DNA of 24,534 nucleotides from a virus (taxonomy: Duplodnaviria > Heunggongvirae > Uroviricota > Caudoviricetes). Of this stretch, positions 7,079 through 24,534 are shown piece after piece. The stretch lies in IMG/VR virus record IMGVR_UViG_2698536676_000006; one strand, given 5' to 3'. Within the stretch, counting starts at the first letter, position 1. Each line of letters starts with the position of its first letter. The notes beneath the pieces are model-generated. The model was not told where the DNA came from, made no database searches, and saw nothing but the letters and a program-made list of their open reading frames with translations. The translations under genes were made by a program, and so were the position numbers.

Positions 7079-7232
7079 AGTTTTTGCCCCTCTGACTGGT
7101 TCTTCAGTCATGATGGCAAAGCGTAACAGGCTGATACAAAGGGCTTTTGTTGTAAGAAAACGGCCAGAACAGGGGGTTAAGGAGAACGGTTTCGCGCGCG
7201 GGTAATCTTCCTGTAATTACTCAGGGGGAGCA

Positions 7233-8495: not shown

Positions 8496-8560
8496 TGTTG
8501 GTGGAGCCGTCGTCGATACAAATTTTCATGTCGCTTTTCCTTATGTTGATTAATTAATCG

Positions 8561-11428: not shown

Positions 11429-11434
11429 AGTGAT

Positions 11435-11800: not shown

Positions 11801-11872
11801 TGCGGCAATCCTCTTGTTACAGATGTGCGAAGGCCTCCCGCCGCAAGGTGCAGGAAAGGCCCGGAACAGGAA

Positions 11873-12103: not shown

Positions 12104-12425
12104 GGTGTGGCCTCTTTGCTCGGTGATAGAAATAACTCACCATCCAGAGTTGAGAATCTCGGGGTGGCGAGACGTACAGGGTTCTCAACACCGGAGAGCA
12201 AAGAATCCGGCCCGACCGAAGTCGGCCCCGTACGCCCCGCCATAATTCTGACGCGAAAAAGACGTGGCAATACAGTGCGCACAAAAAAACCGCTTGCGCG
12301 GTTATGCGCTTTGCTCTGTATCGGGTTGAGAATCCCGGCACCCGTTTTATGAGCTGCAGCGGAAATGTAACCTGACCGATTGAGGCATGGCAAGCGGTTT
12401 TTTTGTGTGTGCATGTTCTGGTTTC
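12104..12425. other. Structured non-coding gap inside the early operon: nested direct and inverted repeats; candidate ncRNA or regulatory/origin-like element
   Basis: GTTGAGAATC[T/C]CGG at about 12150 and 12325, inverted partner GTTCTCAAC at about 12175; CTTTGCTCT / AGAGCAAAG copies; 18-bp inverted repeat cacaaaaaaaccgcttgc at 12281-12298 and 12391-12408; hairpins TCTCG-N6-CGAGA, CCGGA-N9-TCCGG, GGCCCGAC-cgaa-GTCGGCC. Confidence 0.4.
12283..12310 (-). terminator. Candidate rho-independent terminator (AACCGC-gcaa-GCGGTT then TTTTTTTG on the minus strand)
   Basis: Plus strand reads caaaaaaaccgcttgcgcggtt; on the minus strand the hairpin is followed by a 7-T run. Confidence 0.5.
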
Positions 12426-12725
12426 TTACTGGTTCAGAAAAAAATCAAAAACGTTATCGATGCGTTGCAGCAGCTCTTGCTGCATTGCTTCCGGCGTTTC
12501 CGGTTCGCCAGGTGCCCCCAGCGTTGCGCAGAAATCAGCGATTTCATGATGGAGCGTGAGGCGAATGGCAGGAGCCGTGGTTCTGGCGTGCTCCAGCTGA
12601 TCCAGCAGTGCCAGCACAGCAGACGGCGAGAGCATTGCGCGAAATGCCAGTAATTTTTGAGGCGTTGCCATTCGTTGCAGGGCAAATGCCAGTTCGTGTA
12701 GCTTCTGGTGGTTGATGGTGCTCAT
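12426..12725 (-). CDS. Hypothetical protein (99 aa)
   Basis: ATG with GAAGGAAG Shine-Dalgarno; start overlaps the upstream stop (ATGA). Confidence 0.55.
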   Translation of the reverse strand: MSTINHQKLHELAFALQRMATPQKLLAFRAMLSPSAVLALLDQLEHARTTAPAIRLTLHHEIADFCATLGAPGEPETPEAMQQELLQRIDNVFDFFLNQ

Positions 12726-12988
12726 GCTCTGGCTTCCTTCAGTAGCTGGTTAAACATGTGAGTAAGTGGATTGCTACACCCGAACAGCATCGGGTTTACG
12801 TGGTAAGAAGCCTGGCCTCCTGTTTTGCGAGCGCGACCACCTGTGCTGCGGTTTGTTCTGATGACTAAGCCGCCGCGCCAAAGTCGGCGTAACTCAGCAT
12901 TAATGGCTGTGGTTGGGGTATTCAGTGCTGCGGCGATCTCTCCGCCGCTACACCCCGGATGAGTAGCGATGTAGTCCAGAATGGTCAT
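12722..12988 (-). CDS. Putative winged-helix DNA-binding protein (88 aa)
   Basis: MTILDYIATHPGCSGGEIAAALNTPTTAINAELRRLWRGGLVIR looks like an HTH / winged-helix; AGGAG Shine-Dalgarno; ATGA overlap with the upstream gene. Confidence 0.6.
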   Translation of the reverse strand: MTILDYIATHPGCSGGEIAAALNTPTTAINAELRRLWRGGLVIRTNRSTGGRARKTGGQASYHVNPMLFGCSNPLTHMFNQLLKEARA

Positions 12989-13188
12989 CTGCGTGGCTCC
13001 TGTACCTGTCGGATAAGATTCACCCGCGCCACGTTGGTGGCGCAGAAGTAAGTGCCGTCAGTGAGGTAGATGTGGTGTGCATCCTTTTCCGAACGATGTT
13101 TGTCGATAGTGGTAATCAGGCGTTCGTCGACCTCGTATTCGCGCCCTCTGGAGGTAAAGCGAACGACGGGAAAATGCTTAATTGCCAT
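12985..13188 (-). CDS. Hypothetical protein (67 aa)
   Basis: ATG with AAGGGGG Shine-Dalgarno. Confidence 0.5.
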   Translation of the reverse strand: MAIKHFPVVRFTSRGREYEVDERLITTIDKHRSEKDAHHIYLTDGTYFCATNVARVNLIRQVQEPRR

Positions 13189-13242
13189 TGCGCCCCCTTT
13201 GTCCAGTAACCCTATGCGTTAAATACGGCACATTGCGCGTCA

Positions 13243-13629
13243 TCAATGAATACAGCTTGAGAGCGTTCTATCAGGCGGAGATTTGTCAGAAGCTCTGACT
13301 CTTTTGTGTGGTAAGGCGTTATCAGGTATTTGCCGTGCAGTTCGGCAATAATGGTGTATTGCAGCATCATTGCTGAACCAAGAATATAAAATGCAGCGTC
13401 CAATGCTGGACGGATTCATGGCTGCAACTGTTGACTGTGTTTTAAGAGTGTCGATTTCTTTGCTCTGTTCCTCAATAACTTTGGCTGCTTCAGAGGCGGC
13501 TATTGCGATGGTCAGTGCGTAAAGCGCTGCCATATGTTGATTATCTTTCTGGGCTGCCCTGGACAGCTTGTCTTGCTCTGCTGACACTATTTTTAATGTA
13601 TTGATAATATTTTTTTCTTTTGCGTTCAT
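13243..13629 (-). CDS. Hypothetical protein (128 aa); N-terminal half coiled-coil-like, C-terminal half possibly frameshifted
   Basis: Strong start (GGAG then ATG at 13627-13629); a 63-aa ORF in another frame (13212-13403, TTG start) overlaps the 3' half. Confidence 0.45.
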   Translation of the reverse strand: MNAKEKNIINTLKIVSAEQDKLSRAAQKDNQHMAALYALTIAIAASEAAKVIEEQSKEIDTLKTQSTVAAMNPSSIGRCILYSWFSNDAAIHHYCRTARQIPDNALPHKRVRASDKSPPDRTLSSCIH

Positions 13630-13721
13630 TTTATATCTCCGTTATTTACGTGTGCGAATACCTCCGCGAATGCGGATAGTTTTCAGGTTTTCGGGTTTAA
13701 TCTGGTGTTTTGTTTAAGCTG

Positions 13722-13835
13722 TTATTTGTCAGTAAAAAAGCGTTCAATCTTTTTTACTGAATGAATAATTCGCATAATCCCAATGGCGCAGGCCACCGAA
13801 ATAATCAGAACAAGCCATGAGATAAATATACTCAT
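13722..13835 (-). CDS. Small hydrophobic peptide (37 aa, MSIFISWLVLIISVACAIGIMRIIHSVKKIERFFTDK), predicted single transmembrane helix
   Basis: Not in the ORF track (under 60 aa). Hand-translated: ATG at 13833-13835 overlaps the stop of the 80-aa gene upstream (ATGA coupling); a 20-residue hydrophobic stretch is followed by a basic tail. Confidence 0.4.
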   Translation of the reverse strand: MSIFISWLVLIISVACAIGIMRIIHSVKKIERFFTDK

Positions 13836-14074
13836 GCGATATTCCCCAGCTTATACGGTTCAATGTGTTCCCCGCATTCTGCGGCACAGATCAGCTCGGA
13901 AAGTTCGTTAAGTGCATCCAGATCATCAGCGTAAAAAGCAACGTCATACAAACTCCGGATTGCCCTGGTCAATGAGTCACGGGCTGCATGTTCAGCATGA
14001 GCGCCTGATGCACTTAAGCGAAAATAAAATCGTTCAAGTGCTTTGTTAATGAGAGTTTTATATTCTTTGCCCAT
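13832..14074 (-). CDS. Hypothetical protein (80 aa)
   Basis: ATG with AAGGG Shine-Dalgarno. Confidence 0.55.
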   Translation of the reverse strand: MGKEYKTLINKALERFYFRLSASGAHAEHAARDSLTRAIRSLYDVAFYADDLDALNELSELICAAECGEHIEPYKLGNIA

Positions 14075-14085
14075 CGCAACGCCCT

Positions 14086-14364
14086 TTAATCTGCTTTCTG
14101 AATTTCAGCTTCTGAATCCATACAAATAATTTCGATATAGGGTTCATCGCCATTAACCTGACGTGCCTTTTCAGCTTCGCTAATGATTTCTCGTACGGTC
14201 TGGTACGGAAGCTCCACAGTCAGGCGCGTACCGTTCAGATAAACGTAAGTAGTTGCGTTTTTTTCGGATGGAACAACTCCGTCAATGGCTGATGCGCGTA
14301 ATAACAGTTCACCGCGAAAATCAATAAAACGGATAAATACACCTTGTGCATGCTCTTTGGTCAT
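14086..14364 (-). CDS. Hypothetical protein (92 aa from the ATG at 14362-14364)
   Basis: AGGTG Shine-Dalgarno 5 nt upstream of that ATG; the tool's 14424 start is TTG and overlaps the upstream gene. Confidence 0.55.
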   Translation of the reverse strand: MTKEHAQGVFIRFIDFRGELLLRASAIDGVVPSEKNATTYVYLNGTRLTVELPYQTVREIISEAEKARQVNGDEPYIEIICMDSEAEIQKAD

Positions 14365-14374
14365 AAAGCACCTG

Positions 14375-14725
14375 TTATAAATCAGCCTGTTTAATAAAAC
14401 TTTGCCCGCGAAGCAGACGATCAACCGTGCGAAGTGCTTCGTATAATGTGAAATCCTGCCCGAAGTGATTGTCGCCGCAGTTCAATGCAAAAATGCGGTT
14501 TCCGGTAAACGGATTGCGTGGGCATTTGTGGATCACGATTCCAGCTTTCTCAATCAGCCAGGCATGCTCGCCGATTTGTTTTACAGCGTGGCCATCCGGT
14601 GTTGCGTGCGTCTCGTTCAGGTTATAGCGACTGTTACTACGTGATGCACTGGTAGCGACGTGGTGTACATGGCGTTCTACGCTATTACGAAATTTGGAGT
14701 ATGGATTATTAGCGTTTTTTTTCAT
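14375..14725 (-). CDS. Hypothetical protein (116 aa, His/Cys-containing)
   Basis: ORF with ATG start in operon context. Confidence 0.55.
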   Translation of the reverse strand: MKKNANNPYSKFRNSVERHVHHVATSASRSNSRYNLNETHATPDGHAVKQIGEHAWLIEKAGIVIHKCPRNPFTGNRIFALNCGDNHFGQDFTLYEALRTVDRLLRGQSFIKQADL

Positions 14726-14746
14726 GATGGTGCTCTGTTCATTGTT

Positions 14747-14950
14747 TTAGCTGTTAGCCAAAGCGTCTTTTAACATCGCCACAAGGTTTACTTCAGGCTT
14801 TTCCATTTTGGCGCGTTTGGGGCGGATAATAATTCGACCGTCAGCCAACATCTTTTTGCATGTATTAAGAGGGATACCTGTTATCTCTGCATATTTCTGC
14901 AGGGATACATAGGGGGCATTCACATTGATATTGATGGTTATACCTGACAT
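14747..14950 (-). CDS. Cox/Apl-like excisionase-type HTH regulator
   Basis: 67 aa; ...APYVSLQKYAEITGIPLNTCKKMLADGRI... resembles the P2 Cox HTH region as I recall it; correct position in the early operon. Confidence 0.6.
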   Translation of the reverse strand: MSGITININVNAPYVSLQKYAEITGIPLNTCKKMLADGRIIIRPKRAKMEKPEVNLVAMLKDALANS

Positions 14951-14966
14951 CCCACTAGCCTCCTGA

Positions 14967-15173
14967 TCAGGAAGATTTGTTTTGTTCTTTCTGGGTTAGC
15001 TCTAGGCCGCGAAGGAAGATCATGCGCGCCATGTTAGAGGATGAGCGTTGTTCTTTAGCTGCCATTTCATCAATGACGGCTCGCTCCTCGAGGGACAGCC
15101 GAAGTGCCAGTCTTGGACCTGTGGCGGTGTTACGCGGAATGCGTGATCTGGTATCGTGAAGAACTTGTTTCAT
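14967..15173 (-). CDS. Putative ribbon-helix-helix regulator, first gene of the early leftward operon
   Basis: 68 aa; LALRLSLEERAVIDEMAAKEQRSSSNMARMIFLRGL fits the RHH beta-strand/helix pattern; no clear Shine-Dalgarno. Confidence 0.5.
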   Translation of the reverse strand: MKQVLHDTRSRIPRNTATGPRLALRLSLEERAVIDEMAAKEQRSSSNMARMIFLRGLELTQKEQNKSS

Positions 15174-15248
15174 AGTGGTATATTGTGATCATCTAATAGC
15201 TCGTGAAATCATTTGGTATCAAAAAAGATACCTGTCAAGGTTTTTTGT
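15174..15248. promoter_or_regulatory. Immunity-switch intergenic region between divergent early operon and repressor; 18-bp palindrome GGTATC-aaaaaa-GATACC (15215-15232) as candidate operator
   Basis: Perfect palindrome read directly; a TTGACA hexamer on the minus strand (15233-15238) abuts it. Confidence 0.5.
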
Positions 15249-15653
15249 ATGAAAAATGATATTGGTCAGCGGTTGCGTGAGGAAAGGGAAAGATTGGGAC
15301 TTAGTCAAGTTGCCATGAGCGACATTGGTGGAGTCAAAAAGCTAACTCAGCTTAGATATGAGAAAGGAGATAGCTTTCCTGATGCTGCGTATTTGGCAGC
15401 GCTGTCTCGTTTTGGCCTTGATGTTCAGTATGTTGTGTTGGGAATTCACTCACCTGAAACTTATAACGATGATGAGCAGGAGTTGATTACTCGCTTTCGA
15501 GCAGCTTCGTTAGATGTGAAAAACGCGGTGATTGGGGCTTTAAAAGGTGCGATCAGTGAAAAGGAAACTCAGCCATCAGGACGTGAGTTAAATATTTCTG
15601 GTGGTAATAACCGTATCGCTGGTCGTGACTATAACGAAACTAAGGGTAGGTGA
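15249..15653 (+). CDS. CI/C-type immunity repressor (XRE-family HTH)
   Basis: MKNDIGQRLREERERLGLSQVAMSDIGGVKKLTQLRYEKGDSFPDAAYLAALSRFGLDV is a canonical XRE HTH; ATG at 15249 preferred over the tool's TTG at 15213; integrase-proximal, divergent from the early operon. Confidence 0.75.
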   Translation: MKNDIGQRLREERERLGLSQVAMSDIGGVKKLTQLRYEKGDSFPDAAYLAALSRFGLDVQYVVLGIHSPETYNDDEQELITRFRAASLDVKNAVIGALKGAISEKETQPSGRELNISGGNNRIAGRDYNETKGR

Positions 15654-15668
15654 TAGTAGGGAGGTGAC

Positions 15669-16319
15669 ATGGCCGTCAACTCAAACGGTTCAAACAATCG
15701 CGTTGCTGGGCGTGATTTTCACGAAAAGAATATTCAGATAGAGCGATATGATGGTTCTCATACCGTCAATATCGCAATCCCTTCGAATAATGATGATGAC
15801 GATCGCCCTTTGCTTAAGGCTCAGCGTAAGGAGCTAAATAGCTTGGTTGCTGCTATTGCAGAAGCTAGCAATACTGAAGCGTTTATTATTTGGCAAAAAG
15901 TACATGCGGAGATTGGTGTAGCTGGTATTGATGATATGACAGTAAATCAATATAAAACAGCGGAGAGTTTTCTGCATGCAATGCTTGAGCGATGTAAAGA
16001 TCATGATGCCTGTAAGGCTCTTGTAAGTTTATTACTACGTAACAGTGAAGACTGTGGACTTCGACAAAAACTTCTGCGGTATTGCCATATCAATTTCGGT
16101 ACAGGACGTTTAAACGATCTTACTCGTTCTCAGTTACAGTCTGCATTGTCGTGGTTAGAGCAACAATCGGCATCAAGCCACACAGAGAGTTCGACCTTAC
16201 CAGAAGTCCGACTTCGTGCTTCAGAATTAATCCGACTTTATCCAAAAGAAATAATATTCTTTATCTGCGTAGGGGTTTTGGTAGGCGGTGTCATTTCTAG
16301 GGCGTTTTTTAATTTGTAA
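15669..16319 (+). CDS. Cargo gene: 216-aa protein with C-terminal transmembrane anchor (candidate superinfection-exclusion / abortive-infection protein)
   Basis: GGGAGG Shine-Dalgarno; C-terminal IIFFICVGVLVGGVISRAFF hydrophobic helix; N-terminal SNGSNNRVAGRDFHE echoes the repressor C-terminus ISGGNNRIAGRDYNE; lies where P2 has repressor and integrase adjacent. Confidence 0.65.
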   Translation: MAVNSNGSNNRVAGRDFHEKNIQIERYDGSHTVNIAIPSNNDDDDRPLLKAQRKELNSLVAAIAEASNTEAFIIWQKVHAEIGVAGIDDMTVNQYKTAESFLHAMLERCKDHDACKALVSLLLRNSEDCGLRQKLLRYCHINFGTGRLNDLTRSQLQSALSWLEQQSASSHTESSTLPEVRLRASELIRLYPKEIIFFICVGVLVGGVISRAFFNL

Positions 16320-16348
16320 TCTTACTTGAGCTAAATTGAGGTAATGAT

Positions 16349-16696
16349 ATGAAAGTAAAAAAGGTTCAACTATTAGTTACTTTTTTATCTATGTTTTCTT
16401 TTTCCGCCGTCGCAATGCCTTTTAAAACTATTGAACGTGAGAGTTTCAATGGGGTATGGCCATTTAATACTGATGAGGTTCAATTACAGTGTCTTGATGG
16501 TAATCCTTATGTGATGAATTTTGACGATAATAAGTTATATGCACTTACAGGTTTGGCTCGAATAAAAGGTAAAACATTTGGTGCGTTACCGTTAGATAAC
16601 AATAATCCATTTTGGCTAGATAATGATGCCGCCCCAGGGTTAAAAAAGAGCCTGGGGGATGTCACTAAGGCTGCATTTGATTTATGTGATAAGTAA
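16349..16696 (+). CDS. Cargo gene: small secreted protein with signal peptide and two Cys
   Basis: MKVKKVQLLVTFLSMFSFSAVA-MP signal-peptide-like N-terminus; GAGG Shine-Dalgarno; Cys in QCLDG and DLCDK. Possibly DUF2511-like; unverified. Confidence 0.65.
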   Translation: MKVKKVQLLVTFLSMFSFSAVAMPFKTIERESFNGVWPFNTDEVQLQCLDGNPYVMNFDDNKLYALTGLARIKGKTFGALPLDNNNPFWLDNDAAPGLKKSLGDVTKAAFDLCDK

Positions 16697-16701
16697 CTAA
16701 A

Positions 16702-17703
16702 ATGTCGGTTCGTAAGATTCCATCAGGTAAATGGCTTTGCGAATGTTATCCCTACGGGGCATCGGGAAAACGCATTCGTAAACAGTTTGCGACAAAAAGT
16801 GAGGCGCTCTCTTATGAGCGCCGTTTAATGAATAGTAGAGTTGGAGACGAGTTTCAAGATGGTTCTGGTCCTCGTCTTTCTGAGTTGATTGCTCGTTGGT
16901 TTGAGATGTACGGTAAAACCTTGTCCTCTGGTGCAGAGCGCAAAGTCAAACTTGAGGCGATTTGTTCCAGGCTGGGAGATCCATTTGCTTCTCAGTTTGA
17001 CAAAAATATGTTTGCCACTTATCGGGAAAGAAGGTTATCAGGAGAGTGGAATCCCAAGGGGAAGAAAAAACTTAGTGAAGCAACCGTTAATCGCGAGCAG
17101 TCATATCTACATGCTGTTTTTGCCGAACTGAAGCGCCTTGGGGAGTGGTCTGGTGAAAACCCCCTGACTGGTATTCGCAAGTTTCGTGAGGAAGAAAAGG
17201 AACTGGCGTTTCTGTATGTAGATGAGATTGAACGCCTTCTGATTGCGTGTGATGAGTCACGGAATAAAGATTTGGGGGTTGTTGTCCGTATTGGGCTTGC
17301 GACTGGTGCTCGGTGGAGTGAAGCAGAAGGGTTAAAGCAATCTCAAGTACTGCCCGGTCGAATCACATTTGTTAAAACTAAAGGAAAGAAGAACCGCACT
17401 GTACCGATTTCACCTCAATTGCAGGCTATGCTTCCCAAAAAACGAGGAGCGCTATTTTCACCATGTTATGAGGCTTTTGACGCTGCAATTAAGAGAGCGA
17501 AGATCGAGCTTCCTGATGGGCAATTAACTCATGTGCTACGTCACACGTTTGCCAGTCATTTTATGATGCGGGGCGGAAATATTCTTGTGTTGCAAAAAAT
17601 ACTGGGGCATAGCGATATAAAAATGACTATGCGTTATGCGCATTTTGCTCCAGGTCATTTAGAGGCTGCTGTTGAATTGAACCCTTTTGACAATAGAGGG
17701 TAA
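16702..17703 (+). CDS. int: P2-type tyrosine integrase
   Basis: 333 aa; TGARWSEAEGLK, ITFVKTKGKKNRTVPIS, HVLRHTFASHFMMRGGNILVLQKILGH, YAHFAPGHL align with P2 Int as I recall it. Confidence 0.9.
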   Translation: MSVRKIPSGKWLCECYPYGASGKRIRKQFATKSEALSYERRLMNSRVGDEFQDGSGPRLSELIARWFEMYGKTLSSGAERKVKLEAICSRLGDPFASQFDKNMFATYRERRLSGEWNPKGKKKLSEATVNREQSYLHAVFAELKRLGEWSGENPLTGIRKFREEEKELAFLYVDEIERLLIACDESRNKDLGVVVRIGLATGARWSEAEGLKQSQVLPGRITFVKTKGKKNRTVPISPQLQAMLPKKRGALFSPCYEAFDAAIKRAKIELPDGQLTHVLRHTFASHFMMRGGNILVLQKILGHSDIKMTMRYAHFAPGHLEAAVELNPFDNRG

Positions 17704-17809
17704 AAAGTGGCGATAAAAAGTGACAATAGATTCAAATGGCGTTGTATAGAGCCATTTTCAAAGTTAATAAAATCATAAGGTTATGATTTATAAATGGTGG
17801 TTGATAGTT

Positions 17810-17864
17810 TTTAAAATCCCTCGGCGTTCGCGCTGTGCGGGTTCAAGTCCCGCTCCGGGTACCA
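17810..17864 (+). tRNA. 3' fragment (about 55 nt, from the anticodon loop to CCA) of tRNA-Leu(UAA), leuZ-like; integration-site core, not a complete tRNA
   Basis: TTTAAAATCCCTCGGCGTTCGCGCTGTGCGGGTTCAAGTCCCGCTCCGGGTACCA: T-arm GCGGG-TTCAAGT-CCCGC, long variable arm, acceptor 3' strand plus ACCA; no 5' half upstream. Confidence 0.65.
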
Positions 17865-17905
17865 TGGGAAAGACAAGAATAATCAAAGCAATAAGCAGTG
17901 TCGTG

Positions 17906-17930
17906 AAACCACCTACGGGTGGTTTTTTTG
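17906..17930 (+). terminator. Rho-independent terminator (AAACCACC-tacg-GGTGGTTT plus T-run)
   Basis: Read directly from sequence. Confidence 0.6.
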
Positions 17931-17964
17931 TGCCTGAAATTCACGCCCTGTGCATATCCTGTGC

Positions 17965-18846
17965 TCACGGGGTGCAATGAGCCGCAATCTCCAGCCTGGC
18001 AATGCCGAATCGAACGTGTCGCCTCCAGCATAGAGAACCAGGCCGCTTTGCCTGTTTTCCGGTACTCTTCCGGGAAGGGTGGCCTGCTGAGCAAGTTGTA
18101 ATGCTCTGGCCGCCCTTAGTACAAAGTTGCTTAATTCGTGCAATCACCTCATCTCTGTACTTCTGGTGTCCGCGCATAGCCCTTGGATGGGCAATTCTGA
18201 AACAGATTGTATTACCTGTTTTGAACTCCCACAGCTTCCCCGGAATGACTGAAGAAGTCTCATAACCGCCCAGCTCAGTAAGCACCTGTTTAATGATGTA
18301 GTCTGTTCTCCGGGCTCCGGATGCAAAGATCATGAAATCAGGCTCAAGGTGTTTAATTTGTACCGCCAGCAGCTTCAGCGAGGCTAATATGACTTCCTGC
18401 ACTTCATTTTGAGGGCGATTGAGAGGGGTCAGTCCGTCGTAATCCCACGCCAGTAGATTGGCATACACGATAGCCTGAGGAGGAATATTAAGCTCCCGGG
18501 CCAGCCTGAAATGATATTGCGTGAAGCGGCTACGTGATTTGAGGTTGGTGGTGCCATCATTTTGTACCGGAAGATGTTTCCTGTAACGATCTACAGCTTC
18601 TTCAACCACCTGCCCGATGGTGACGTCAGGCATAAGTCCCAACACCCGTGATATCGTATTCTTACCATTCAGCGTATTCCAGCCTGCGGTTTCACGTCTA
18701 ACCAGCATGATTTTTACCGGTGAATGCCAGTATTCTTCAAACGGCACGGGTAAAAAGACGCCTGAGTATTTATCTTCATTCAGGTTAAATGACTGGGCGT
18801 CAACTTCCTGTAATATCCGTTTGTACGCGTCTAATAGCCTTTCCAT
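17965..18846 (-). CDS. Hypothetical protein (293 aa) between the tRNA fragment and the P4-type integrase; C-terminal 50 aa low-complexity, possibly non-native
   Basis: Long ORF, no family recognised; Cys/Arg/Ser-rich tail. Confidence 0.55.
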   Translation of the reverse strand: MERLLDAYKRILQEVDAQSFNLNEDKYSGVFLPVPFEEYWHSPVKIMLVRRETAGWNTLNGKNTISRVLGLMPDVTIGQVVEEAVDRYRKHLPVQNDGTTNLKSRSRFTQYHFRLARELNIPPQAIVYANLLAWDYDGLTPLNRPQNEVQEVILASLKLLAVQIKHLEPDFMIFASGARRTDYIIKQVLTELGGYETSSVIPGKLWEFKTGNTICFRIAHPRAMRGHQKYRDEVIARIKQLCTKGGQSITTCSAGHPSRKSTGKQAKRPGSLCWRRHVRFGIARLEIAAHCTP

Positions 18847-18926
18847 TCTTCAATCCTGCCCCGTAATAAAAACACCTTCAGATATATATTATTTTCATGA
18901 TATCAATCAGATATATGAGGATAAAT

Positions 18927-20126
18927 ATGCAAAAATCCTTCCGATTCACCAATTCATCCATCAAAGCCCTTCCGGCAAACACAGATACCCGATCTACAGA
19001 GCTTGAGGTATCCGATACTGAGGTCATTGGCCTCAAATGCCTCTCAGGTCGAACGGGTAACAAACGTTTCCTCCTGCGCTACACATTCCACGGTACCAAA
19101 AAAAGTATCAGTATTGGCAGATTCCCTGAAATTGATGTGGGGACAGCCCGTCAGATAGCTCGTCGTCACAAGGAGGCGATTGCACTGGGAAATGACCCTA
19201 AGGCAGAACGCGATAATTATCGTGCTATGCCAACGCTTAGTGAGTTTTTTCACCAGACCTATGTTCCGTTCATCAAACGCCATAAAAAGTCCTGGGATAA
19301 GGATGTTCAGCGTTTCACGCAATACATTGAACCTTGTCTGGGGAAGATACGTTACTGTGACCTTCGGGCCCGGGAAATCCAGCAGGTGCTTTTCGACATG
19401 CTTGAGGGTCGTATTCACGGGCAGCAATATGCGCCGTCTACCTGTAACAGAGCCCTTGCTATTCTGAAAACGATGGGGCGTTATGCGTTGCGACAGGATG
19501 TGCTGGAAAAGAATGAAGCCGATAAGATCCCTTTACTGAAAGAGAATAATCAGCGGACGCGCTTTTTTGATGCTGATGAGATCAGGCGCATTCTTGACGC
19601 TGCTACCCAATATCCCAACAAAGCTGCCGGGGGATTGATAGCCATGTTGTTGTTAACCGGTACACGCAAAACAGAAATGCTTAATGTCAGGCATGAACAT
19701 ATCGACCGGGCCAATCGTACTCTGTTCATTCCTTATACAAAAAATGGTCGCAGTCGGACGGTATATCTAAGCGATGCCGCATTATCGATTATTGATGCTA
19801 TCCCACGAGTTGGCAGTAATCCGTATCTGTTCGCCATTAAGGATAATGGCAAACCGATATCGGAACCCCGATGGGCATATGAAAAAATACTGGCACAGTG
19901 CGGTATAGACAAGAATGAAGTCTGTTTTCACACCACACGTCATTCTGTTGCCTCTTTACTGGTTTCGAGTGGTCAATTCAGCCTGTATGACGTTAAAGCC
20001 CAACTGGCGCATGCCAGTATTCAGAGTACAGAACGTTACGCGAAATTAACACCGGAACGTATGCGTCAGACAGGGCAGGGAGTGACTGACCTGCTTCTGA
20101 ATACTGCGGCTACGAAGCAGATGTGA
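18927..20126 (+). CDS. int: P4-family tyrosine integrase (genomic-island type)
   Basis: N-terminal arm-binding domain (...GLKCLSGRTGNKRFLLRYTFHGTKKSISIGRFPEIDVGTARQIARRHKEAIALGNDPKA) and catalytic region (...TRHSVASLL...ERYAKL); ATG at 18927 with GAGG Shine-Dalgarno preferred over tool start 18897. Confidence 0.85.
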   Translation: MQKSFRFTNSSIKALPANTDTRSTELEVSDTEVIGLKCLSGRTGNKRFLLRYTFHGTKKSISIGRFPEIDVGTARQIARRHKEAIALGNDPKAERDNYRAMPTLSEFFHQTYVPFIKRHKKSWDKDVQRFTQYIEPCLGKIRYCDLRAREIQQVLFDMLEGRIHGQQYAPSTCNRALAILKTMGRYALRQDVLEKNEADKIPLLKENNQRTRFFDADEIRRILDAATQYPNKAAGGLIAMLLLTGTRKTEMLNVRHEHIDRANRTLFIPYTKNGRSRTVYLSDAALSIIDAIPRVGSNPYLFAIKDNGKPISEPRWAYEKILAQCGIDKNEVCFHTTRHSVASLLVSSGQFSLYDVKAQLAHASIQSTERYAKLTPERMRQTGQGVTDLLLNTAATKQM

Positions 20127-20162
20127 CTACTTTTTAGCAAACTATAAATATGGAGAATGAGG

Positions 20163-20399
20163 ATGCATTTAAAATGCCCACAGTGTGGCAGTTGTAATAC
20201 ATTGATAAGTTCAGCAGGAAAACTGCCATCGATAACCGATAATAAACACTCTGGGTATATTAGCCTGGAGTTTTTACCTGAAATACTGAAAGAAATTATT
20301 AAGGCTATTAAAAAACTATTTGGATTCCTTGAACAGTGTGAAAGGAATAATGCTCCAGTGCTTATCTGTATGGACTGTGGATATTATGAAAGAATTTAA
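20163..20399 (+). CDS. Small zinc-ribbon protein (CPQCGSC ... CMDCGYYE)
   Basis: Two CxxC pairs about 60 residues apart; GGAG Shine-Dalgarno; has its own terminator. Confidence 0.6.
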   Translation: MHLKCPQCGSCNTLISSAGKLPSITDNKHSGYISLEFLPEILKEIIKAIKKLFGFLEQCERNNAPVLICMDCGYYERI

Positions 20400-20446
20400 A
20401 TAGAAAACCAATAACTGTAAATAATAGTTATGCGGATGTATAAAAA

Positions 20447-20476
20447 CCTCGATACGTTAATCGTATCGGGTTTTTT
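20447..20476 (+). terminator. Rho-independent terminator (CGATACG-ttaat-CGTATCG plus TTTTTT)
   Basis: Read directly from sequence. Confidence 0.6.
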
Positions 20477-20494
20477 GTTTATGAGGATTATTCA

Positions 20495-20866
20495 ATGAAA
20501 TTTGTCTCGAACTGGCAAGACCTGCCGTCGCTCCTTCTTCCGGAGTCAGTAATGAGTCTGTTGAAAACAGAGCTGGTACTCCCATTTGAAGATGAATACT
20601 CTGCAATGAGTTTCTGGGATGAAGTCGGGGTGACATTAATATATGTCGAGCCCGATGATGTACCTGAAGATATTAAAGCGCAGGTATTAAATGTGATTCA
20701 TCAGTTAATTGCAAATCCAGAATTTGTAGTCCGTCTGACAGATGACTATTACCTGATGCTTTCTGTTACGGAAGATAACGGGAACGGTATTTATCTGTTA
20801 TTTCACCCCGATTGCCCTCTGAAGGGTATTGATTTATTAATTTCTATGGCCGAATCACGCTATTAA
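20495..20866 (+). CDS. Operon gene 1: acidic 123-aa hypothetical protein
   Basis: GAGGA Shine-Dalgarno; Asp/Glu-rich; AT-rich codon usage. Confidence 0.65.
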   Translation: MKFVSNWQDLPSLLLPESVMSLLKTELVLPFEDEYSAMSFWDEVGVTLIYVEPDDVPEDIKAQVLNVIHQLIANPEFVVRLTDDYYLMLSVTEDNGNGIYLLFHPDCPLKGIDLLISMAESRY

Positions 20867-20891
20867 ACACAAGCAAAACCAGGAACGCAAA

Positions 20892-21425
20892 ATGAGTAAA
20901 TCAAAATTAGTTAAAAATAATGTTGAGTCAGTTTCGAAGGAGATTAAAAATGAGGCAGAGGTTATTCATGAAAATCTCAGTGCAGATGAACAAACATTAT
21001 CTGATGTAAAAGACTATCAGTTGCTCATTGAAACAGGCCAGGCAGAAAAAATCAGTCCTAAGGCAAGTGGTATGCTGACATGGCAACTGGCGATATCAGA
21101 GGTGGATAATGAACTTTATCTTCGTCTGGTGGCAAATGGCTGTGGAGGGTTGTTCTCTAAGGACTGGATCTCACTTTCAAAGATTGCAACTGTTCTGGAA
21201 ACACAACCTGCTACCGGCTTCTCATCCGGAGTATTCAGGCCGCTATTCAAAGGGGCAAGCGCCAACAATGCAGGTTTTCTGGCTGCTGTTTTACGCTCCC
21301 CGGATATATGTCTGCTGGAGGCACATCCAGAGAAGTTATTTACTCATGTATTATACCCGGACTGGAGGGAGCGGTTGAATAAACTTAATACGATCAGTAG
21401 CCAGGAAAAGATTACAGAGGATTAA
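20892..21425 (+). CDS. Operon gene 2: 177-aa hypothetical protein
   Basis: AGGAA Shine-Dalgarno; 25-bp gap from gene 1. Confidence 0.65.
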   Translation: MSKSKLVKNNVESVSKEIKNEAEVIHENLSADEQTLSDVKDYQLLIETGQAEKISPKASGMLTWQLAISEVDNELYLRLVANGCGGLFSKDWISLSKIATVLETQPATGFSSGVFRPLFKGASANNAGFLAAVLRSPDICLLEAHPEKLFTHVLYPDWRERLNKLNTISSQEKITED

Positions 21426-21497
21426 TTTATTTCCTGCACTGTTATACAACCAGAAATCACCACACACCACTATTTACTTTCTAAAGGAAAATTTATT

Positions 21498-21932
21498 ATG
21501 CAAACCCAATATGCCTTAAAACAGGCAGGATTAACTCTGCCTGTTACTAAAGAATTTCAGCAGCATATTACTACTCTTCTGGCAAATCAGGTTTTACAAA
21601 AAATAACTGAGGCAGTGGTTATTAATTTCCGTGATCCGGACTACAGTGCAGAATCCGGGGGCTTTCATCCCGTTGAAATACGGTTTATCCGTAAGAATAA
21701 TGAATGGTATTTTGATTATGTCACAGATTTTAGTTATATGGGGCGTGTCTACCCTGAGCTGGAAAAAGAAATTGATTTTTGCTGGTCGGGGAATTATGTC
21801 TTCCATTATCTGATTGGGGATATTTCACTGGCAGCAGAGAGGAATGAACTCTGGTCCCTGTGGGAGCGTAATTTTATGGAGTATCTCTCTATGGGGATTT
21901 ACCGGGTAACGGTAACTGTGGAAAGTTGTTGA
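21498..21932 (+). CDS. Operon gene 3: 144-aa hypothetical protein (Trp/Tyr/Phe-rich)
   Basis: AAAGGA Shine-Dalgarno; 72-bp gap with no terminator before it. Confidence 0.65.
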   Translation: MQTQYALKQAGLTLPVTKEFQQHITTLLANQVLQKITEAVVINFRDPDYSAESGGFHPVEIRFIRKNNEWYFDYVTDFSYMGRVYPELEKEIDFCWSGNYVFHYLIGDISLAAERNELWSLWERNFMEYLSMGIYRVTVTVESC

Positions 21933-22045
21933 CCCGTTATGAACAGGAAGAAAGCGGGCGGCTTTGTAATCTACTGCATGTGGCGTGCATCACAGCATGG
22001 AGATGATGTCTCTTTTTCCTAGCTGTTCGCATAAACAAGTGCAGA

Positions 22046-22076
22046 CACGGGGGATCTCAGATCCCTCGTGGTTTTT
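22046..22076 (+). terminator. Rho-independent terminator closing the three-gene operon (CACGGGGGATCT / AGATCCCTCGTG then GTTTTTG)
   Basis: Read directly from sequence. Confidence 0.55.
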
Positions 22077-22233
22077 GCCCCCTATGGAGCATTCTCCTGT
22101 AGCAGGGTGATAACGGTTAATCCATTACCCCAACTACAGTATTACACCGGTAATAAATGTTCATGAATACAGTTAGTTATGTGGGTTTTGAGGTGGGCTA
22201 TGTCATCGTTGACGATAACTGAAGGTTTTACAG

Positions 22234-22461
22234 ATGTATAAAACTCGCGGTGAAAGGATCGCAGAAAGGCTGTGCTGGATATTACTTCAACTGTATACCG
22301 GTAATACGGTATCGGTTAATGATATATGTCAGCGTTTCGCGGTCAGTCGCCGAACCGGACAGCGTGATTTGTTGAGAGTTGAAACTGTAACGGAAACTAT
22401 TTCACCTGGAAGGGTAAGGCTGGCAAGTTTGATAAGGGAACGAGTTAGACGAAATTTTTAA
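22234..22461 (+). CDS. Small HTH protein (75 aa) resembling the N-terminal DNA-binding domain of a WYL/DeoR-type regulator
   Basis: ERIAERLCWILLQLYTGNTVSVNDICQRFAVSRRTGQRDLLRVE parallels [40 protein letters not shown] of the WYL protein at 23423-24325. Confidence 0.5.
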   Translation: MYKTRGERIAERLCWILLQLYTGNTVSVNDICQRFAVSRRTGQRDLLRVETVTETISPGRVRLASLIRERVRRNF

Positions 22462-22496
22462 TCGAATCCATATCAATACTATAAAATATGAAAATT

Positions 22497-22522
22497 AACG
22501 GGAGTAAATATATACTCCCGTT
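22497..22522. terminator. Hairpin between convergent genes (AACGGGAGTA-N6-TACTCCCGTT), T-rich on both sides
   Basis: 10-bp perfect stem read directly. Confidence 0.5.
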
Positions 22523-22542
22523 ATAATGCAACCTTTTTTTAA

Positions 22543-23361
22543 CTACTCAAATGATATTAATTTAGGTGCGACAGTGTTTTTATGATGTGTTGAATTTGCA
22601 AGATTAATAATATCATGAAATGATTTCATGTCGTCGTCAGTGATTTCTAGGGCTGGATCAGCTAAATCGGCACAGGTAACATTTAACCAGTGTGTTAATG
22701 AATCAATCCTGTTTGAAGTAATATATTCAGTGTGACCAATATTCCACTTCCAGTTGATTATCCGAGCAGGTCTGAATCTCACCTCCCGAACCCCAATTGG
22801 CGTTACTGACTCTACGAGAGGGTATATCGTGTTAAGTACTTTATCATGTTCACTGTAGATATTTAAATGCCCCATTTTTGAACCGTAAGCCATTTTCATT
22901 ATGTTCTCTGTATAACTTGTTATTGGGGTGGCTCCGGCCATAGAGATTGTTAAGAGAATATTATCATTTTTAATATAGGGTAATGTATTGTTTATTAATC
23001 GAGTCCCTAAAGAATGACCCATTATGATCACATTACGCTTTTCTTTAACGTATATCTCGTTTATTACGTGTGCTAATTTTTCTCTGTTATTAACTGCTGC
23101 TTTCGTTGCATTATACCAGGCCTGACGCGCTTTAAATGGAATGGAGATTGATGACAATAAAGGAGATGTTCTCAGGGGGAAGAGAGTATATAACCCCCAC
23201 TTGTTCGCTATGTCAGAACTTAATATGGATAGTAGATTTGCCGATTCCCATTTATAGTATCTGACATCAAGGCCACACCCTGCTTTAATTCGGTTAAACC
23301 ATGATATATCATTTTCGGTCAGAAACCCTGATACAACAAGAAGAACCGGGCATTTTTTCAT
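22543..23361 (-). CDS. Alpha/beta-hydrolase-fold serine hydrolase (esterase/lipase-like), candidate effector
   Basis: 272 aa; IIMGHSLGTRL carries a G-x-S-x-G nucleophile elbow; GGAG Shine-Dalgarno; AT-rich. Confidence 0.7.
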   Translation of the reverse strand: MKKCPVLLVVSGFLTENDISWFNRIKAGCGLDVRYYKWESANLLSILSSDIANKWGLYTLFPLRTSPLLSSISIPFKARQAWYNATKAAVNNREKLAHVINEIYVKEKRNVIIMGHSLGTRLINNTLPYIKNDNILLTISMAGATPITSYTENIMKMAYGSKMGHLNIYSEHDKVLNTIYPLVESVTPIGVREVRFRPARIINWKWNIGHTEYITSNRIDSLTHWLNVTCADLADPALEITDDDMKSFHDIINLANSTHHKNTVAPKLISFE

Positions 23362-23422
23362 GGTAACTCCATTTTTTAGCTTACAAAAATAGCACTCAAT
23401 GAAAATTATATTATCCGTGTCA

Positions 23423-24325
23423 TTACGGGGCGTTACTTGGCTGGGTGTAACGTTTCAGTGCGGATTGTATATCTTCAGCAAGTTGTTGACGGATTGAGGC
23501 CGGTTGTATTACTTCGACATCCGGTATCCAGTATTTCATTAAAGGCATTATCTGATCTGTGTGTGTTACACGTGATATCACCAGTAAATCGCCAGACCGG
23601 GAAGTATGAATTATTTCCTGTCCTGGCAATAGATGACGGTGGGTAAACCACGGAGCAACATGTGCGGAAACTGAAATAAGAGCTTCGATAAGGTCTTCGC
23701 TATACCAGATACCATCTGTCTTTTCTATTTTTTCATTAATTTCGGGGATTATCCTGAAAGAGATATTACTCATGCAAACGTCTTTGACAGATGAGATAAC
23801 AAAGCTTTTTAATGTACTGTCATGGGCGGCAGCGAGATACCACAATCCGTTGTCATTAACCAGTCTGTATGGCTCAACAGCCCGAAACTCTTTATCTTTG
23901 TAATTAAAATTTACTTTCTTCTGTGACAGGATGGCATCGGATAATACATTCAGAATTGACATGAATGATCCGCAGTTTTCGTATGGACGTTGTTTTATCA
24001 GAAACGGGTTGTTTTTCGTGTTACCTAACAAAATACTCAGTAGTCTGTCATCCCAGCGAGGGAACAGCCCTTCAATACCCAGGATGCGCGTGAAATGACG
24101 TAAATCAGCATTGCTGCGTTGACCGAGAACACCGTCAGACAGGCGATAGCGACCATTTTGTCGAATCAGATTAAGATAGGACAGGCGCTGAGTAAGATCA
24201 CGACGGATAGTTTTTTCGCAAACGTTAAATTCCTCAGATAACTCCCGGACGGCTAGTGACTCACCATTGTTCAGGCGAGTTAATATCAATCCGAGTCGAT
24301 ATCCAAGTTTATCGTGCTTACCCAT
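23423..24325 (-). CDS. WYL-domain transcriptional regulator (HTH-WYL architecture, BrxR/CapW-like)
   Basis: 300 aa; N-terminal HTH ([35 protein letters not shown]), central LWYL motif ([12 protein letters not shown]); ATG lies 5 bp from the IS1 end. Confidence 0.75.
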
Positions 24326-24330
24326 TCATT

Positions 24331-24534
24331 GGTGATGCTGCCAACTTACTGATTTAGTGTATGATGGTGTTTTTGAGGTGCTCCAGTGGCTTCTGTTTCT
24401 ATCAGCTGTCCCTCCTGTTCAGCTACTGACGGGGTGGTGCGTAACGGCAAAAGCACCGCCGGACATCAGCGCTATCTCTGCTCTCACTGCCGTAAAACAT
24501 GGCAACTGCAGTTCACTTACACCGCTTCTCAACC
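24331..24534 (+). mobile_element. IS1 left-end fragment; element continues right of the window
   Basis: GGTGATGCTGCCAACTTACTGATTTAGTGTATGATGGTG...CACCGCTTCTCAACC matches the IS1 5' end. Confidence 0.9.
24386..24534 (+). CDS. insA: IS1 InsA, 5' partial
   Basis: GTG GCT TCT GTT TCT ATC AGC TGT CCC..., the InsA N-terminus. Confidence 0.75.

Follow-up and report, generated by a model that had tools for sequence, protein, structure and literature searches.

The 293-codon open reading frame (ORF) at positions 17965–18846 of the DNA analyzed here, a stretch of 24,534 nucleotides referred to below as the window, belongs to an enterobacterial pipolin, of which it is the 'UDG' gene, and its native place is between the att repeat proximal to the tRNA and a P4/SXT-type integrase gene. 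The best overall explanation, to which we assign a probability of about 0.8, is that this UDG-like pipolin gene lost its stop codon and belongs to a family of probable DNA glycosylases. Pipolins are mobile elements whose hallmark, located between their att repeats, is a gene for a primer-independent family-B DNA polymerase (piPolB), and the enterobacterial ones use the 3' end of leuZ as their target. The gene and its placement are already known from the pipolin literature (Flament-Simon et al., 2020, PMC7385651; Mateo-Caceres et al., 2024, PMC11551731), and its pseudogene status is already recorded by PGAP, which marks identical copies as pseudogenes ending at the equivalent of position 18109.

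An AGGA ribosome-binding site can be read from the sequence 7 nt upstream of the ATG of the ORF. The ORF is flanked on its 3' side by the 3' part of a tRNA-Leu gene (leuZ, from the anticodon loop through CCA, positions 17810–17864, plus strand), and on its 5' side, at a distance of 50–80 bp, by a divergently oriented tyrosine recombinase gene, named 'IntSXT' or 'XerC_2' in the pipolin papers (PMC11551731, PMC7385651). ARAGORN detected no complete tRNA in the window, and a sigma-70 promoter scan of positions 17700–19100, which covers the DNA separating the UDG-like gene from that of the integrase, gave no consensus match. The original prediction, a minus-strand gene of 293 amino acids between an attachment fragment and an integrase, is thus correct as a description of the sequence. 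It had also regarded the gene as an orphan wedged between an integrase and a tRNA that normally adjoin each other, and this view has to be abandoned, as we identify the gene as the pipolin 'UDG', whose product has a UDG-superfamily fold, and a position between tRNA and integrase is native to it, as described by Flament-Simon et al. (PMC7385651). Around intact orthologues of 246 amino acids in E. coli and five other genera, the order is pgsA, glyW, cysT, leuZ, about 240 bp, the gene and the integrase, and tRNA, gene and integrase keep this order in Escherichia, Enterobacter, Citrobacter, Franconibacter, Buttiauxella and Shimwellia. The comparison with other islands at this tRNA that had been proposed as a check finds the gene at full length (about 246 amino acids) there, ending before the tail seen in the window. 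The pipolin recombinase was found with 94–100% identity beside the UDG-like gene in 11 enterobacterial loci. In the E. coli pipolins surveyed by Flament-Simon et al., all at a Leu-tRNA, UDG was present in 87 of 92 (95%) and syntenic with XerC at the tRNA end (PMC7385651).

Table 1. Features of the window that bear on the UDG-like gene and on the element carrying it.
Feature	Positions	Strand	Basis
Integrase gene of co-integrated P2-like (myovirus) prophage, left of the att fragment	16702..17703	+	Pfam Int_N + Phage_integrase; PGAP 'phage integrase' WP_001300279.1 in identical strains
att direct repeat of ~127 bp: leuZ 3' part (17810-17864), spacer, terminator hairpin (~17905-17929), end GTGCCTG	17810..17936	+	Alignment, BLAST, hairpin fold
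Element-specific DNA between att repeat and native stop; non-coding in intact alleles	17937..18105	-	Alignments
UDG-like ORF, 293 aa, ATG start	17965..18846	-	ORF list
Codon 247, ancestral stop TAG -> CAG (Gln); A-to-G on the plus strand at 18108	18106..18108	-	Alignments
Conserved 246-codon body of pipolin UDG-superfamily gene; motif A G50(R here)-R-E52-T, then N130, motif B H220-P221-R	18109..18846	-	
Codon 50, AGA (Arg) for family-wide motif-A Gly (GGA -> AGA, G50R)	18697..18699	-	Alignment
Divergent intergenic region between UDG-like gene and integrase gene	18847..18926	.	Sequence
P4/SXT-type tyrosine recombinase gene of the pipolin	18897..20126 (start 18897 by ORF list, 18927 by PGAP)	+	Pfam Arm-DNA-bind_3 + Phage_integrase
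Remaining pipolin core	20495..24325	.	ORFs, Pfam, PADLOC
Two orphan genes of the pipolin core	20495-20866; 20892-21425		
DUF2787 gene	21498-21932		Pfam
DUF726 gene	22543-23361	-	Pfam
HTH-WYL regulator gene	23423-24325	-	WYL match in PADLOC
IS1, first 204 nt; separates pipolin core from piPolB and cargo	24331..24534	+	BLAST against related loci, FORC_031 annotation

The element has att-like direct repeats, one of them over the 3' end of the tRNA gene, as expected of a pipolin. The repeat in the window could be aligned to the yecA-side copy and to intact leuZ, BLAST of positions 17810–17936 matched the attR copy and the intact leuZ of FORC_031, and a pattern search located a second copy in a related locus (L001, 39741–39765). 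It is the middle one of three copies and corresponds to the tRNA-proximal end of the pipolin. Three att repeats together with a myovirus prophage have been described for strains H10407, 2014EL-1346-6 and 99-3165 (PMC7385651), all of which are among the genomes matching the window, and a prophage at the same Leu-tRNA site as pipolins is likewise on record (PMC7385651). The pipolin inserted at the 3' end of leuZ, with the UDG-like gene native beside the tRNA-proximal att repeat, and a P2-like prophage that integrated later at the same tRNA site displaced the intact leuZ, leaving its 3' fragment next to the gene. Just beyond the repeat, the motifs CCCTGTGC (17946–17953), CTGTGCTCA (17959–17967) and CGCAATCT (17983–17990) recur, their order unchanged, in the other arm of the element (L001, about 39581–39611), and we infer from this recurrence that they may be arm-type sites of the integrase.

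The genes of the window to the right of the att repeat belong to a gammaproteobacterial pipolin core, comprising an IntSXT-type recombinase, DUF2787, a WYL regulator, orphan genes and UDG at the tRNA end, and this set agrees with the list given by Mateo-Caceres et al. (PMC11551731). The core genes are arranged as in 99-3165 and H10407, both of which are pipolin hosts (PMC7385651). The core of 99-3165 is 99.2% identical, and its island encodes a protein of 866 amino acids with D368, K613-H614 and KTRG, which are published landmarks of piPolB (PMC5695915). The window as a whole does not derive from 99-3165, as the identity of about 99% is limited to its right part; the near-identical genome is that of FORC_031. 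No piPolB gene is present in the window because the element is severed by an IS1 at position 24331, and positions 1–204 are an inverted copy of the same 204 nt of IS1. In FORC_031, the annotated stretch of about 14 kb after the IS1 contains no gene annotated as a polymerase. Deleted pipolins beside prophages are recorded in the pipolin literature.

The claim that the protein has no recognizable family holds for the curated domain libraries, in which scans of the 293-amino acid protein (Pfam, NCBIfam and PADLOC) gave no match, the 2023 release of PADLOC having no model for the pipolin UDG-like family. It does not hold beyond them, as the homology and structure searches that had been recommended uncovered a family of homologues, a PHROG family and a UDG-superfamily fold. 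A word-indexed search returned 172 homologues at E ≤ 1e-3 and an exhaustive search 444 clusters at 50% identity. PHROGs contains a single family of unknown function, whose 293-position profile was seemingly built on the read-through allele discussed below. A profile search of PDB sequences detected no relative. In its predicted structure (pLDDT 89.9), the protein adopts the alpha/beta fold of UDGs, with the family-4 UDG of Sulfolobus tokodaii (Q96YD0/4ZBY) as the top Foldseek match, and the family of about 246 amino acids is, on this model, one of UDG-superfamily fold; in a viral fold library, matches were confined to distant phage UDGs and N-terminal domains of PolA. With the Pfam UDG model (PF03167), the window protein gave no match at E ≤ 1 and did not reach the gathering score, whereas 50 of 105 diverse relatives matched at E ≤ 1 (best E 8.3e-7), a result that gives the window protein transitive support only.

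In the UDG superfamily, motif A (G-x-[D/N/E/A]-P-x) follows strand 1 and motif B (H-P-x) the last core strand. Across the 105 relatives, G50, E52, W56, N130, R217, H220 and P221 are each conserved in at least 97%, and both UDG motifs can be recognized in the consensus, G50-[R/K/Q]-E52-[T/P] as motif A and H220-P221 as motif B, motif A being broken in the window allele by G50R. Judged by conservation and by secondary-structure position in the model, rather than by residue-level superposition, we infer that these residues would line the active site. Fold, motif positions and precedent together suggest that intact family members are probably monofunctional DNA glycosylases of the UDG superfamily. 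An intact protein would flip a base into a pocket formed by motif A (G-[R/K/Q]-E52-T), N130 and motif B (H220-P), and would then cut the N-glycosidic bond, producing an abasic site.

Family 4 UDGs are thermostable enzymes in which four cysteines ligate a [4Fe-4S] cluster and motif A reads G-E-A/G-P-G. Sequence identity to members of this family (TM0511 of Thermotoga maritima, 1L9G; S. tokodaii UDG, 4ZBY) is 12–15%, and the UDG-like protein contains an insertion of about 60 residues (helices 65–118) between motif A and the Asn strand. The pipolin family has a single conserved Cys column, with a median of two cysteines per protein in the close set and a minimum of one among relatives, so that a four-cysteine Fe-S cluster is not possible, and its motif A reads G-R-E-T-A-G. 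It therefore falls outside family 4 and looks like a UDG family of its own. Family 1 UNG has GQDPY as motif A, H-P-x as motif B and an Asn after strand 2. Its motif A (G-Q-D-P-Y) carries an acidic third residue, compared with G-[R/K/Q]-E-T here, and both families share the H-P-x motif B and the Asn after strand 2. In the literature, the pipolin 'UDG' is the same gene, at the Leu-tRNA end beside XerC/IntSXT (PMC7385651, PMC11551731), labelled 'type-4 UDG' (PMC7385651), and its best database match is the same S. tokodaii enzyme that heads our Foldseek results. The window copy differs from the gene of these papers in having no stop codon, in G50R and in belonging to an element cut by IS1 after the WYL gene. 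The available portions of the two papers (PMC7385651, PMC11551731) give no activity for the UDG protein and do not report the window allele.

As to function, we prefer an attack on non-canonical bases of invading phage DNA, by analogy with Brig1, Brig2 and Brig3. Tentatively, and at somewhat less than even odds, the roughly 440 clusters (50% identity) of the pipolin UDG family may represent a distinct family of anti-phage DNA glycosylases native to E. coli and other Gammaproteobacteria, analogous to Brig1–3 and independent of them, which outside the enterics would form a two-part system with a partner of about 110 amino acids, sometimes fused; the window would hold a recently inactivated copy. 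Relatives outside pipolins are found near Mrr and type I restriction-modification (RM) genes in Proteus, near Mrr_cat and PDDEXK_4 in Pectobacterium, and near WYL/BrxR, Zorya and an ADP-ribosyl glycohydrolase in marine Pseudomonas, and distant relatives form a two-gene or fused module with the partner of about 110 amino acids, located in defence islands. In the enterobacterial and pipolin clade no such partner was detected when its HMM was run against six-frame ORFs of the window and 25 other loci (best E = 1.4, compared with 1e-37 to 1e-54 for positive controls), and a hidden partner gene in the window was rejected on these grounds. A survey of the literature on UDG-like proteins in defence systems and on leuZ islands yielded nothing informative.

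Brig1, an anti-phage alpha-glucosyl-hmC DNA glycosylase, also has a UDG-superfamily fold with 4ZBY as best PDB match, and it resembles the UDG-like gene in being a single-gene system of defence islands and mobile elements (Hossain et al., 2024, PMC11078745). Some loci of both have ADP-ribosyl glycohydrolase neighbours. An assignment of the UDG-like family to Brig1 was nevertheless rejected, as no sequence relation could be detected: hhalign of the family alignment against a single machine-read Brig1 sequence from the supplement of that paper gave a probability of 0.6% (E 0.1), and Brig1 has G-L-N-P-G as motif A and a longer N-terminal region, unlike the UDG-like family. Brig3, a 5hmC glycosylase acting with BapA, and Brig2, a modified-thymidine glycosylase, are likewise UDG-superfamily defence glycosylases. 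Brig3 is encoded in an operon with a second gene and has an ADP-ribosyl glycohydrolase nearby, which recalls the pairing or fusion of non-enteric UDG-like members with their small partner; BapA has an ASCH fold and exceeds 250 amino acids, as opposed to the 110-amino acid partner of the UDG-like relatives, and the enterobacterial/pipolin clade has no partner. The published Brig3 residues F31, N50-P51-S52, D127, R140 and N225 are roughly collinear with F31, E52-T53, N130/D135, R144 and H220-R222 of the protein studied here, a lead based on residue numbers only. The motif strings of the family gave no match in the tables of the Brig2 paper.

Alternatively, the family might serve the element itself as a housekeeping or maintenance glycosylase that removes uracil or damaged bases, possibly coupled to replication by the translesion-capable, primer-independent piPolB. 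We regard this main alternative as somewhat unlikely, since close relatives (78–84% identity) are found at sites with no pipolin, integrase or tRNA, adjacent to restriction genes of the Mrr type, the distant ones constitute the module within defence islands, and the gene has been pseudogenized repeatedly, as illustrated by an independent internal stop in SCEC020022 and by a separate frameshifted allele among the homologues. Moreover, E. coli encodes Ung and Mug of its own. Consistent with maintenance are the presence of UDG in 95% of E. coli pipolins and its core position beside the integrase (PMC7385651, PMC11551731), the resemblance of motif A (G-[R/Q]-E-T) to GQDPY of UNG together with the H-P motif B, and the fact that the discoverers of pipolins counted UDGs among replication-associated functions (PMC5695915). 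According to Mateo-Caceres et al. (PMC11551731), the UDG gene belongs to the conserved core module of pipolins and not to their variable defence cargo, a location compatible with either maintenance or defence.

It is quite improbable that the UDG fold has been kept without glycosylase activity, the protein being a DNA-binding accessory or a recombination-directionality-type factor for the adjacent integrase. Such a function would fit the tight divergent arrangement with the integrase gene, with 50–80 bp of shared control region in all enterobacterial elements, and non-catalytic UDG folds do occur among the matches (D4, the processivity factor of vaccinia, and UDG-like domains at the N-terminus of phage PolA). 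However, it is the catalytic motif positions (G50, E52, N130, H220-P221) whose residues remain unchanged down to about 22% identity, and most homologues have no adjoining integrase.

The copy in the window departs from the family at its C-terminus. Full-length relatives finish with ...KQLCT(Q/K)GG* at about 246 amino acids, and the window ORF continues for 47 codons. Its last 47 residues, QSITTCSAGHPSRKSTGKQAKRPGSLCWRRHVRFGIARLEIAAHCTP, include 6 Arg, 5 Ser and 3 Cys, in agreement with the Cys/Arg/Ser-rich end of about 50 residues noticed originally, and no homologues of this tail were detected beyond the read-through allele lineage. In 80 nt around the stop codon, E. coli STEC346 (intact protein WP_001774914.1) and the window differ in a single base, CTA versus CTG on the plus strand, that is, TAG versus CAG. 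The DNA encoding the tail is 97–99% identical in four related loci, including STEC346, in which the frame is closed by TAG; in one TAG-bearing locus (L071) the tail frame contains an additional stop. In the window, positions 17965–18105 are translated as codons 248–293 and a new TGA stop (17965–17967). These alignments establish the tail as read-through, by a single transition, into the element's own non-coding att arm: with TAG changed to CAG at codon 247, ribosomes would run 47 codons into it. Read-through had been predicted correctly, and a widespread conserved homologue with the same C-terminus, which would have contradicted it, was not found, the 293-amino acid form being restricted to one E. 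coli allele lineage. The further claim that the sequence read into is foreign proved wrong, because the tail DNA is the 3' flank of the element itself, 97–99% identical where it is non-coding, with no recombination junction. Insertion of the P2-like prophage was also considered as the cause of the truncation or fusion and was rejected, since the last base of the att repeat is 17936 and the tail is encoded by element DNA, and since the gene is intact in H10407, where the prophage junction is the same and the same prophage integrase adjoins the gene.

A second change, GGA to AGA (G50R), afterwards hit the near-invariant glycine of motif A in the sub-lineage of the window. Of 105 diverse relatives, 104 have Gly in column 50, the only Arg being that of the window, and two alleles with the read-through tail retain G50, as does the 293-amino acid allele of strain 600055; the loss of the stop codon therefore preceded G50R. 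As far as can be judged from the sequence, G50R is a second lesion, probably an inactivating one, and stop loss and G50R together suggest that the window copy is a decaying allele, probably inactive.

It is very improbable that the 293-amino acid protein is instead a functional new variant, no pseudogene, in which a basic, Cys-containing tail is tolerated or even useful, for example in DNA binding. The exact protein is present on 321 contigs, the allele occurs in 29 of the 511 complete genomes bearing the gene (29 of 5426 complete genomes overall), which indicates that counter-selection is not strong, the left-hand context varies (the P2 integrase, or, in strain 600055, a SIR2-family gene), and the frame is still open behind an intact ribosome-binding site. 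On the other hand, this spread is consistent with clonal inheritance in a lineage of enterotoxigenic E. coli (ETEC), the tail has no homologue elsewhere, meets stops in the same frame of another strain's locus and overlaps the candidate arm repeats of the integrase, and G50R was acquired subsequently at a glycine otherwise conserved. That a foreign gene without family was inserted between the tRNA att site and the integrase, its C-terminus fused to unrelated DNA at the junction, is almost certainly wrong: the blank Pfam, NCBIfam and PADLOC scans, the unusual composition of the tail, and the adjoining mere tRNA fragment and abutting prophage would agree with it, but identical gene order with intact leuZ and without the prophage occurs in many genomes and genera, the tail DNA follows the TAG of intact alleles (one base apart in STEC346) and lies to the right of the att repeat, entirely within DNA specific to the element, and H10407 combines the prophage with an intact gene.

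With the gene assigned to the pipolin, the anomaly in the window disappears, as it occupies its normal place in a described element and its odd tail results from a one-base stop loss. The wider value is modest and concerns the 'type 4' label of a family that has neither the Fe-S cysteines nor the family-4 motif and whose relatives lie near restriction and defence genes, often beside or fused to a small partner. An intact allele, for instance that of ETEC H10407 (WP_000413229.1), would offer a cheap candidate for a native E. coli defence glycosylase.

A minus-strand ORF, preceded by an AGGA ribosome-binding site 7 nt upstream of its ATG, encodes a protein that had no match in Pfam, NCBIfam or PADLOC and whose last 47 residues include 6 Arg, 5 Ser and 3 Cys. 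To its right, at a distance of 50–80 bp, lies a divergent gene whose product, a tyrosine recombinase, contains the domains Arm-DNA-bind_3 and Phage_integrase, and further rightward the window contains two orphan genes, DUF2787, DUF726 and a gene for an HTH-WYL regulator. To its left, the 3' part of leuZ is followed by the terminator hairpin of the operon, no complete tRNA was detected in the window with ARAGORN, and a P2-like prophage occupies the left two thirds of the window. These ORF, tRNA and domain scans agree with the original prediction as far as the ORF, the tRNA fragment, the integrase and the odd tail are concerned. Comparison with other genomes identifies the gene as a known gene of pipolins, mobile elements encoding the primer-independent polymerase piPolB. 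The gene stands in its normal place, lost its stop through a change of one base and later acquired a substitution in motif A.

Positions of features in the window
Feature	Position	Strand	Remarks
First 204 nt of IS1	1-204, 24331-24534		inverted to each other, IS1 ends inward
Prophage segment of about 2.3 kb	4626-6900		absent from FORC_031
C4 antisense RNA	12160-12247	-	Rfam, 78.5 bits, above gathering score
isrK Hfq-binding RNA	12283-12357	-	Rfam, 59.5 bits, above gathering score
Second integrase	16702-17703		at end of P2-like prophage
tRNA-Leu 3' part (leuZ type)	17810-17864		anticodon loop to CCA; left of UDG-like ORF
att direct repeat	17810-17936		leuZ 3' part and terminator
CCCTGTGC, CTGTGCTCA, CGCAATCT	17946-17990		candidate arm-type motifs
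UDG-like ORF (uracil-DNA glycosylase-like)	17965-18846	-	293 aa
Codon 247	18106-18108		TAG -> CAG

The window was aligned to the intact locus L002 and to four complete E. coli genomes. In all aligned loci the DNA beyond the normal stop is present and 97–99% identical, and in the 80 nt around the stop the sequence of STEC346 is a single base apart from that of the window (CTA versus CTG on the plus strand). The tail had been attributed to read-through into foreign sequence; the read-through is confirmed by this one-base loss of the stop and by homologues that end at about 246 aa, and the foreign origin is refuted by the identity of the DNA downstream of the stop. As strain MB56 has an additional stop in the same downstream frame, this stretch is non-coding elsewhere, and PGAP annotates a sequence identical to that of the window as a pseudogene with 'missing C-terminus' that ends at the equivalent of 18109. 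Of two further copies of the att repeat, one adjoins yecA and the other lies within the intact leuZ, on the upstream side of the prophage. Since the repeat in the window ends at 17936, the whole tail (17965-18105) is encoded by DNA specific to the element, situated between that repeat and the gene; this DNA is neither attachment fragment nor foreign. The three short motifs listed in the table are found again, with their order unchanged, in the other arm of the element (about 39581-39611 of L001, the locus with the yecA-side att copy); the two arms flank the att core. The motifs are candidate sites for arm-type binding by the pipolin integrase, and the new TGA stop of the read-through ORF falls within one of them.

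A search among 5.8 billion proteins yielded 172 homologues, nearly all of 240–256 aa and aligned only to the first 82–84% of the 293-aa query, and an exhaustive profile search gave 444 clusters at E<=1e-3 and 203 at E<=1e-10; the gene, a known constituent of pipolins, is therefore not the family-less orphan it had been taken for. The 246-aa representative of the closest cluster (96% identity, 3071 member sequences) ends in ...KQLCTQGG*, whereas the window protein instead runs on as ...KQLCTKGGQSITT... The PHROG profile for this family, phrog_29550, spans 293 positions, of which 246-aa proteins cover 1-246; it appears to have been built on the read-through pseudogene allele, which probably came in along with the neighbouring prophage.

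Residue 50 of the window protein is Arg, within MLVGRETAGWNT. An alignment of 105 relatives, extending to those with about 22% identity, has Gly at this column in 104 sequences and Arg in the window only. Since tailed alleles with an intact G50 exist (P0126 and strain 600055), the stop was lost first and G50R arose later. This gene's 3' terminus was found in 511 of 5426 complete E. coli genomes, 29 of them identical to the window around the stop, and the exact 293-aa protein in 321 contigs. Independent lesions occur elsewhere, namely W134* in SCEC020022 and a frameshifted 284-aa form. In strain 600055 (NZ_CM129037.1, 245985-248464) the tRNA side carries a SIR2-family gene in place of the P2 integrase, so the element on that side varies among strains.

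In loci with an intact leuZ and without the prophage, the order is pgsA, glyW, cysT, leuZ, about 240 bp, the UDG-like gene and the integrase. This order was found in E. coli (L002, STEC346, MB56) and in Enterobacter, Franconibacter, Citrobacter, Buttiauxella and Shimwellia, so that the gene is native to this place and not wedged between tRNA and integrase, as had been supposed. Strain 99-3165 has a core 99.2% identical to that of the window, and in its island the core is followed by genes for an 866-aa protein and then for an excisionase-like HTH protein and a second tyrosine recombinase. The 866-aa protein has D368, K613-H614 and KTRG, published landmarks of piPolB (PMC5695915). Pipolins of E. 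coli are all located at a Leu-tRNA gene between att repeats, and 99-3165, 2014EL-1346-6 and H10407, which are also genome matches to the window (H1, H2 and H17), have three such repeats because a myovirus prophage uses the same site (PMC7385651). As an intact 246-aa gene adjoins the same prophage integrase in H10407, the prophage is ruled out as cause of the lesion. The conserved pipolin core near the integration site comprises IntSXT, DUF2787, WYL and orphan genes, and prophage co-integration and IS-linked deletions have been noted (PMC11551731).

Two further loci show other arrangements. In Shimwellia pseudoproteus (L016) the integrase is 98% identical to that of the window and the adjoining glycosylase-like gene only 78%, a pattern compatible with exchange of individual genes inside the pipolin core, as also suggested by the low congruence of UDG, XerC and piPolB trees (PMC7385651). 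In Kosakonia sp. S29 (L015, 5370-5950) a tRNA-Ser is followed by three tandem copies, each of about 180 bp, of its 3' end and terminator and directly thereafter by a 79%-identical glycosylase-like gene that abuts leuZ and lacks an integrase; the arrangement resembles a scar left by repeated rounds of integration and excision.

The window itself has the appearance of a contig with an IS1 copy at either end. At 24331 its element is interrupted by IS1, which lies 5 bp upstream of the gene for the WYL regulator and parts the pipolin core from piPolB and cargo, so that piPolB is not visible in the window. FORC_031 is 99.98% identical over 6901-24534 and has, beyond the same IS1, a type I restriction-modification (RM) system, two DUF262 genes and Hhe. 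Its baseplate and scaffold genes at the missing prophage segment are annotated as truncated, and the prophage of this lineage is degenerate and variable. The matches to C4 antisense RNA and isrK are adjacent within it.

Structural matches to the UDG-like protein were UdgX, SMUG1, BdiUNG, SMUG2, MUG, TDG, vaccinia D4 and the N-terminal domain of a phage PolA, each 9–14% identical to the query. Pfam PF03167 was touched by 50 of 105 diverse relatives (best E 8e-7) and not by the window protein itself. Residues G50, E52, W56, N130, R217, H220 and P221 are at least 97% conserved, and the model has G-x-E-T after strand 1, N after strand 2 and H-P after the last core strand. In known UDGs these positions are occupied by motif A, the base-reading Asn and motif B, to which the three elements would correspond. 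Type 4 UDGs have G-E-A-P-G as motif A, whereas the pipolin family has G-R-E-T-A-G; a [4Fe-4S] site is impossible because only one Cys column is conserved, and the label 'type 4' does not hold strictly. Within the UDG superfamily, the family is best regarded as a branch of its own. Intact members would most likely flip a base from the helix, hydrolyse the glycosidic bond and leave an abasic site.

About 20 non-enteric loci (L024-L043, L048, L053, L056, L063, L067) have a 109–113-aa gene immediately upstream of the glycosylase gene, and several proteins (among P0137, P0139, P0175, P0179 and P0194) carry this partner fused to their N-terminus (P0139 versus free partner, E 8e-15). The partner has no Pfam family, adopts an alpha-beta-beta-alpha-beta-beta fold in a confident fusion model (pLDDT 88, pTM 0.88) and is absent from the window and all enterobacterial loci. 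In L067-L069 (6376-8750) the pair has an ADP-ribosyl glycohydrolase gene as its immediate upstream neighbour, beside WYL/BrxR and Zorya.

For intact members of the family a role in defence is predicted with a probability of somewhat more than one in three. It is suggested by Pectobacterium relatives (78–84% identity) that adjoin genes for Mrr_cat and PDDEXK_4 and have neither integrase nor tRNA in their vicinity, by Proteus copies adjoining Mrr and a type I RM system, and by a marine Pseudomonas group amid WYL/BrxR, Zorya and an ADP-ribosyl glycohydrolase gene, a neighbour also reported for Brig1 and Brig3 loci. The gene is patchy in distribution and has frequently become a pseudogene, a defence function has been proven for UDG-fold enzymes in three cases (Brig1, Brig2, Brig3), and a defensive function of glycosylases in pipolins has been proposed by the pipolin authors themselves (PMC11551731). 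A relationship to Brig1 by sequence was rejected (hhalign probability 0.6%). A competing maintenance role, regarded as slightly less probable than defence, would be consistent with the location of the gene within the conserved pipolin core and not among variable cargo (PMC11551731), and with its first listing among replication-associated functions (PMC5695915).
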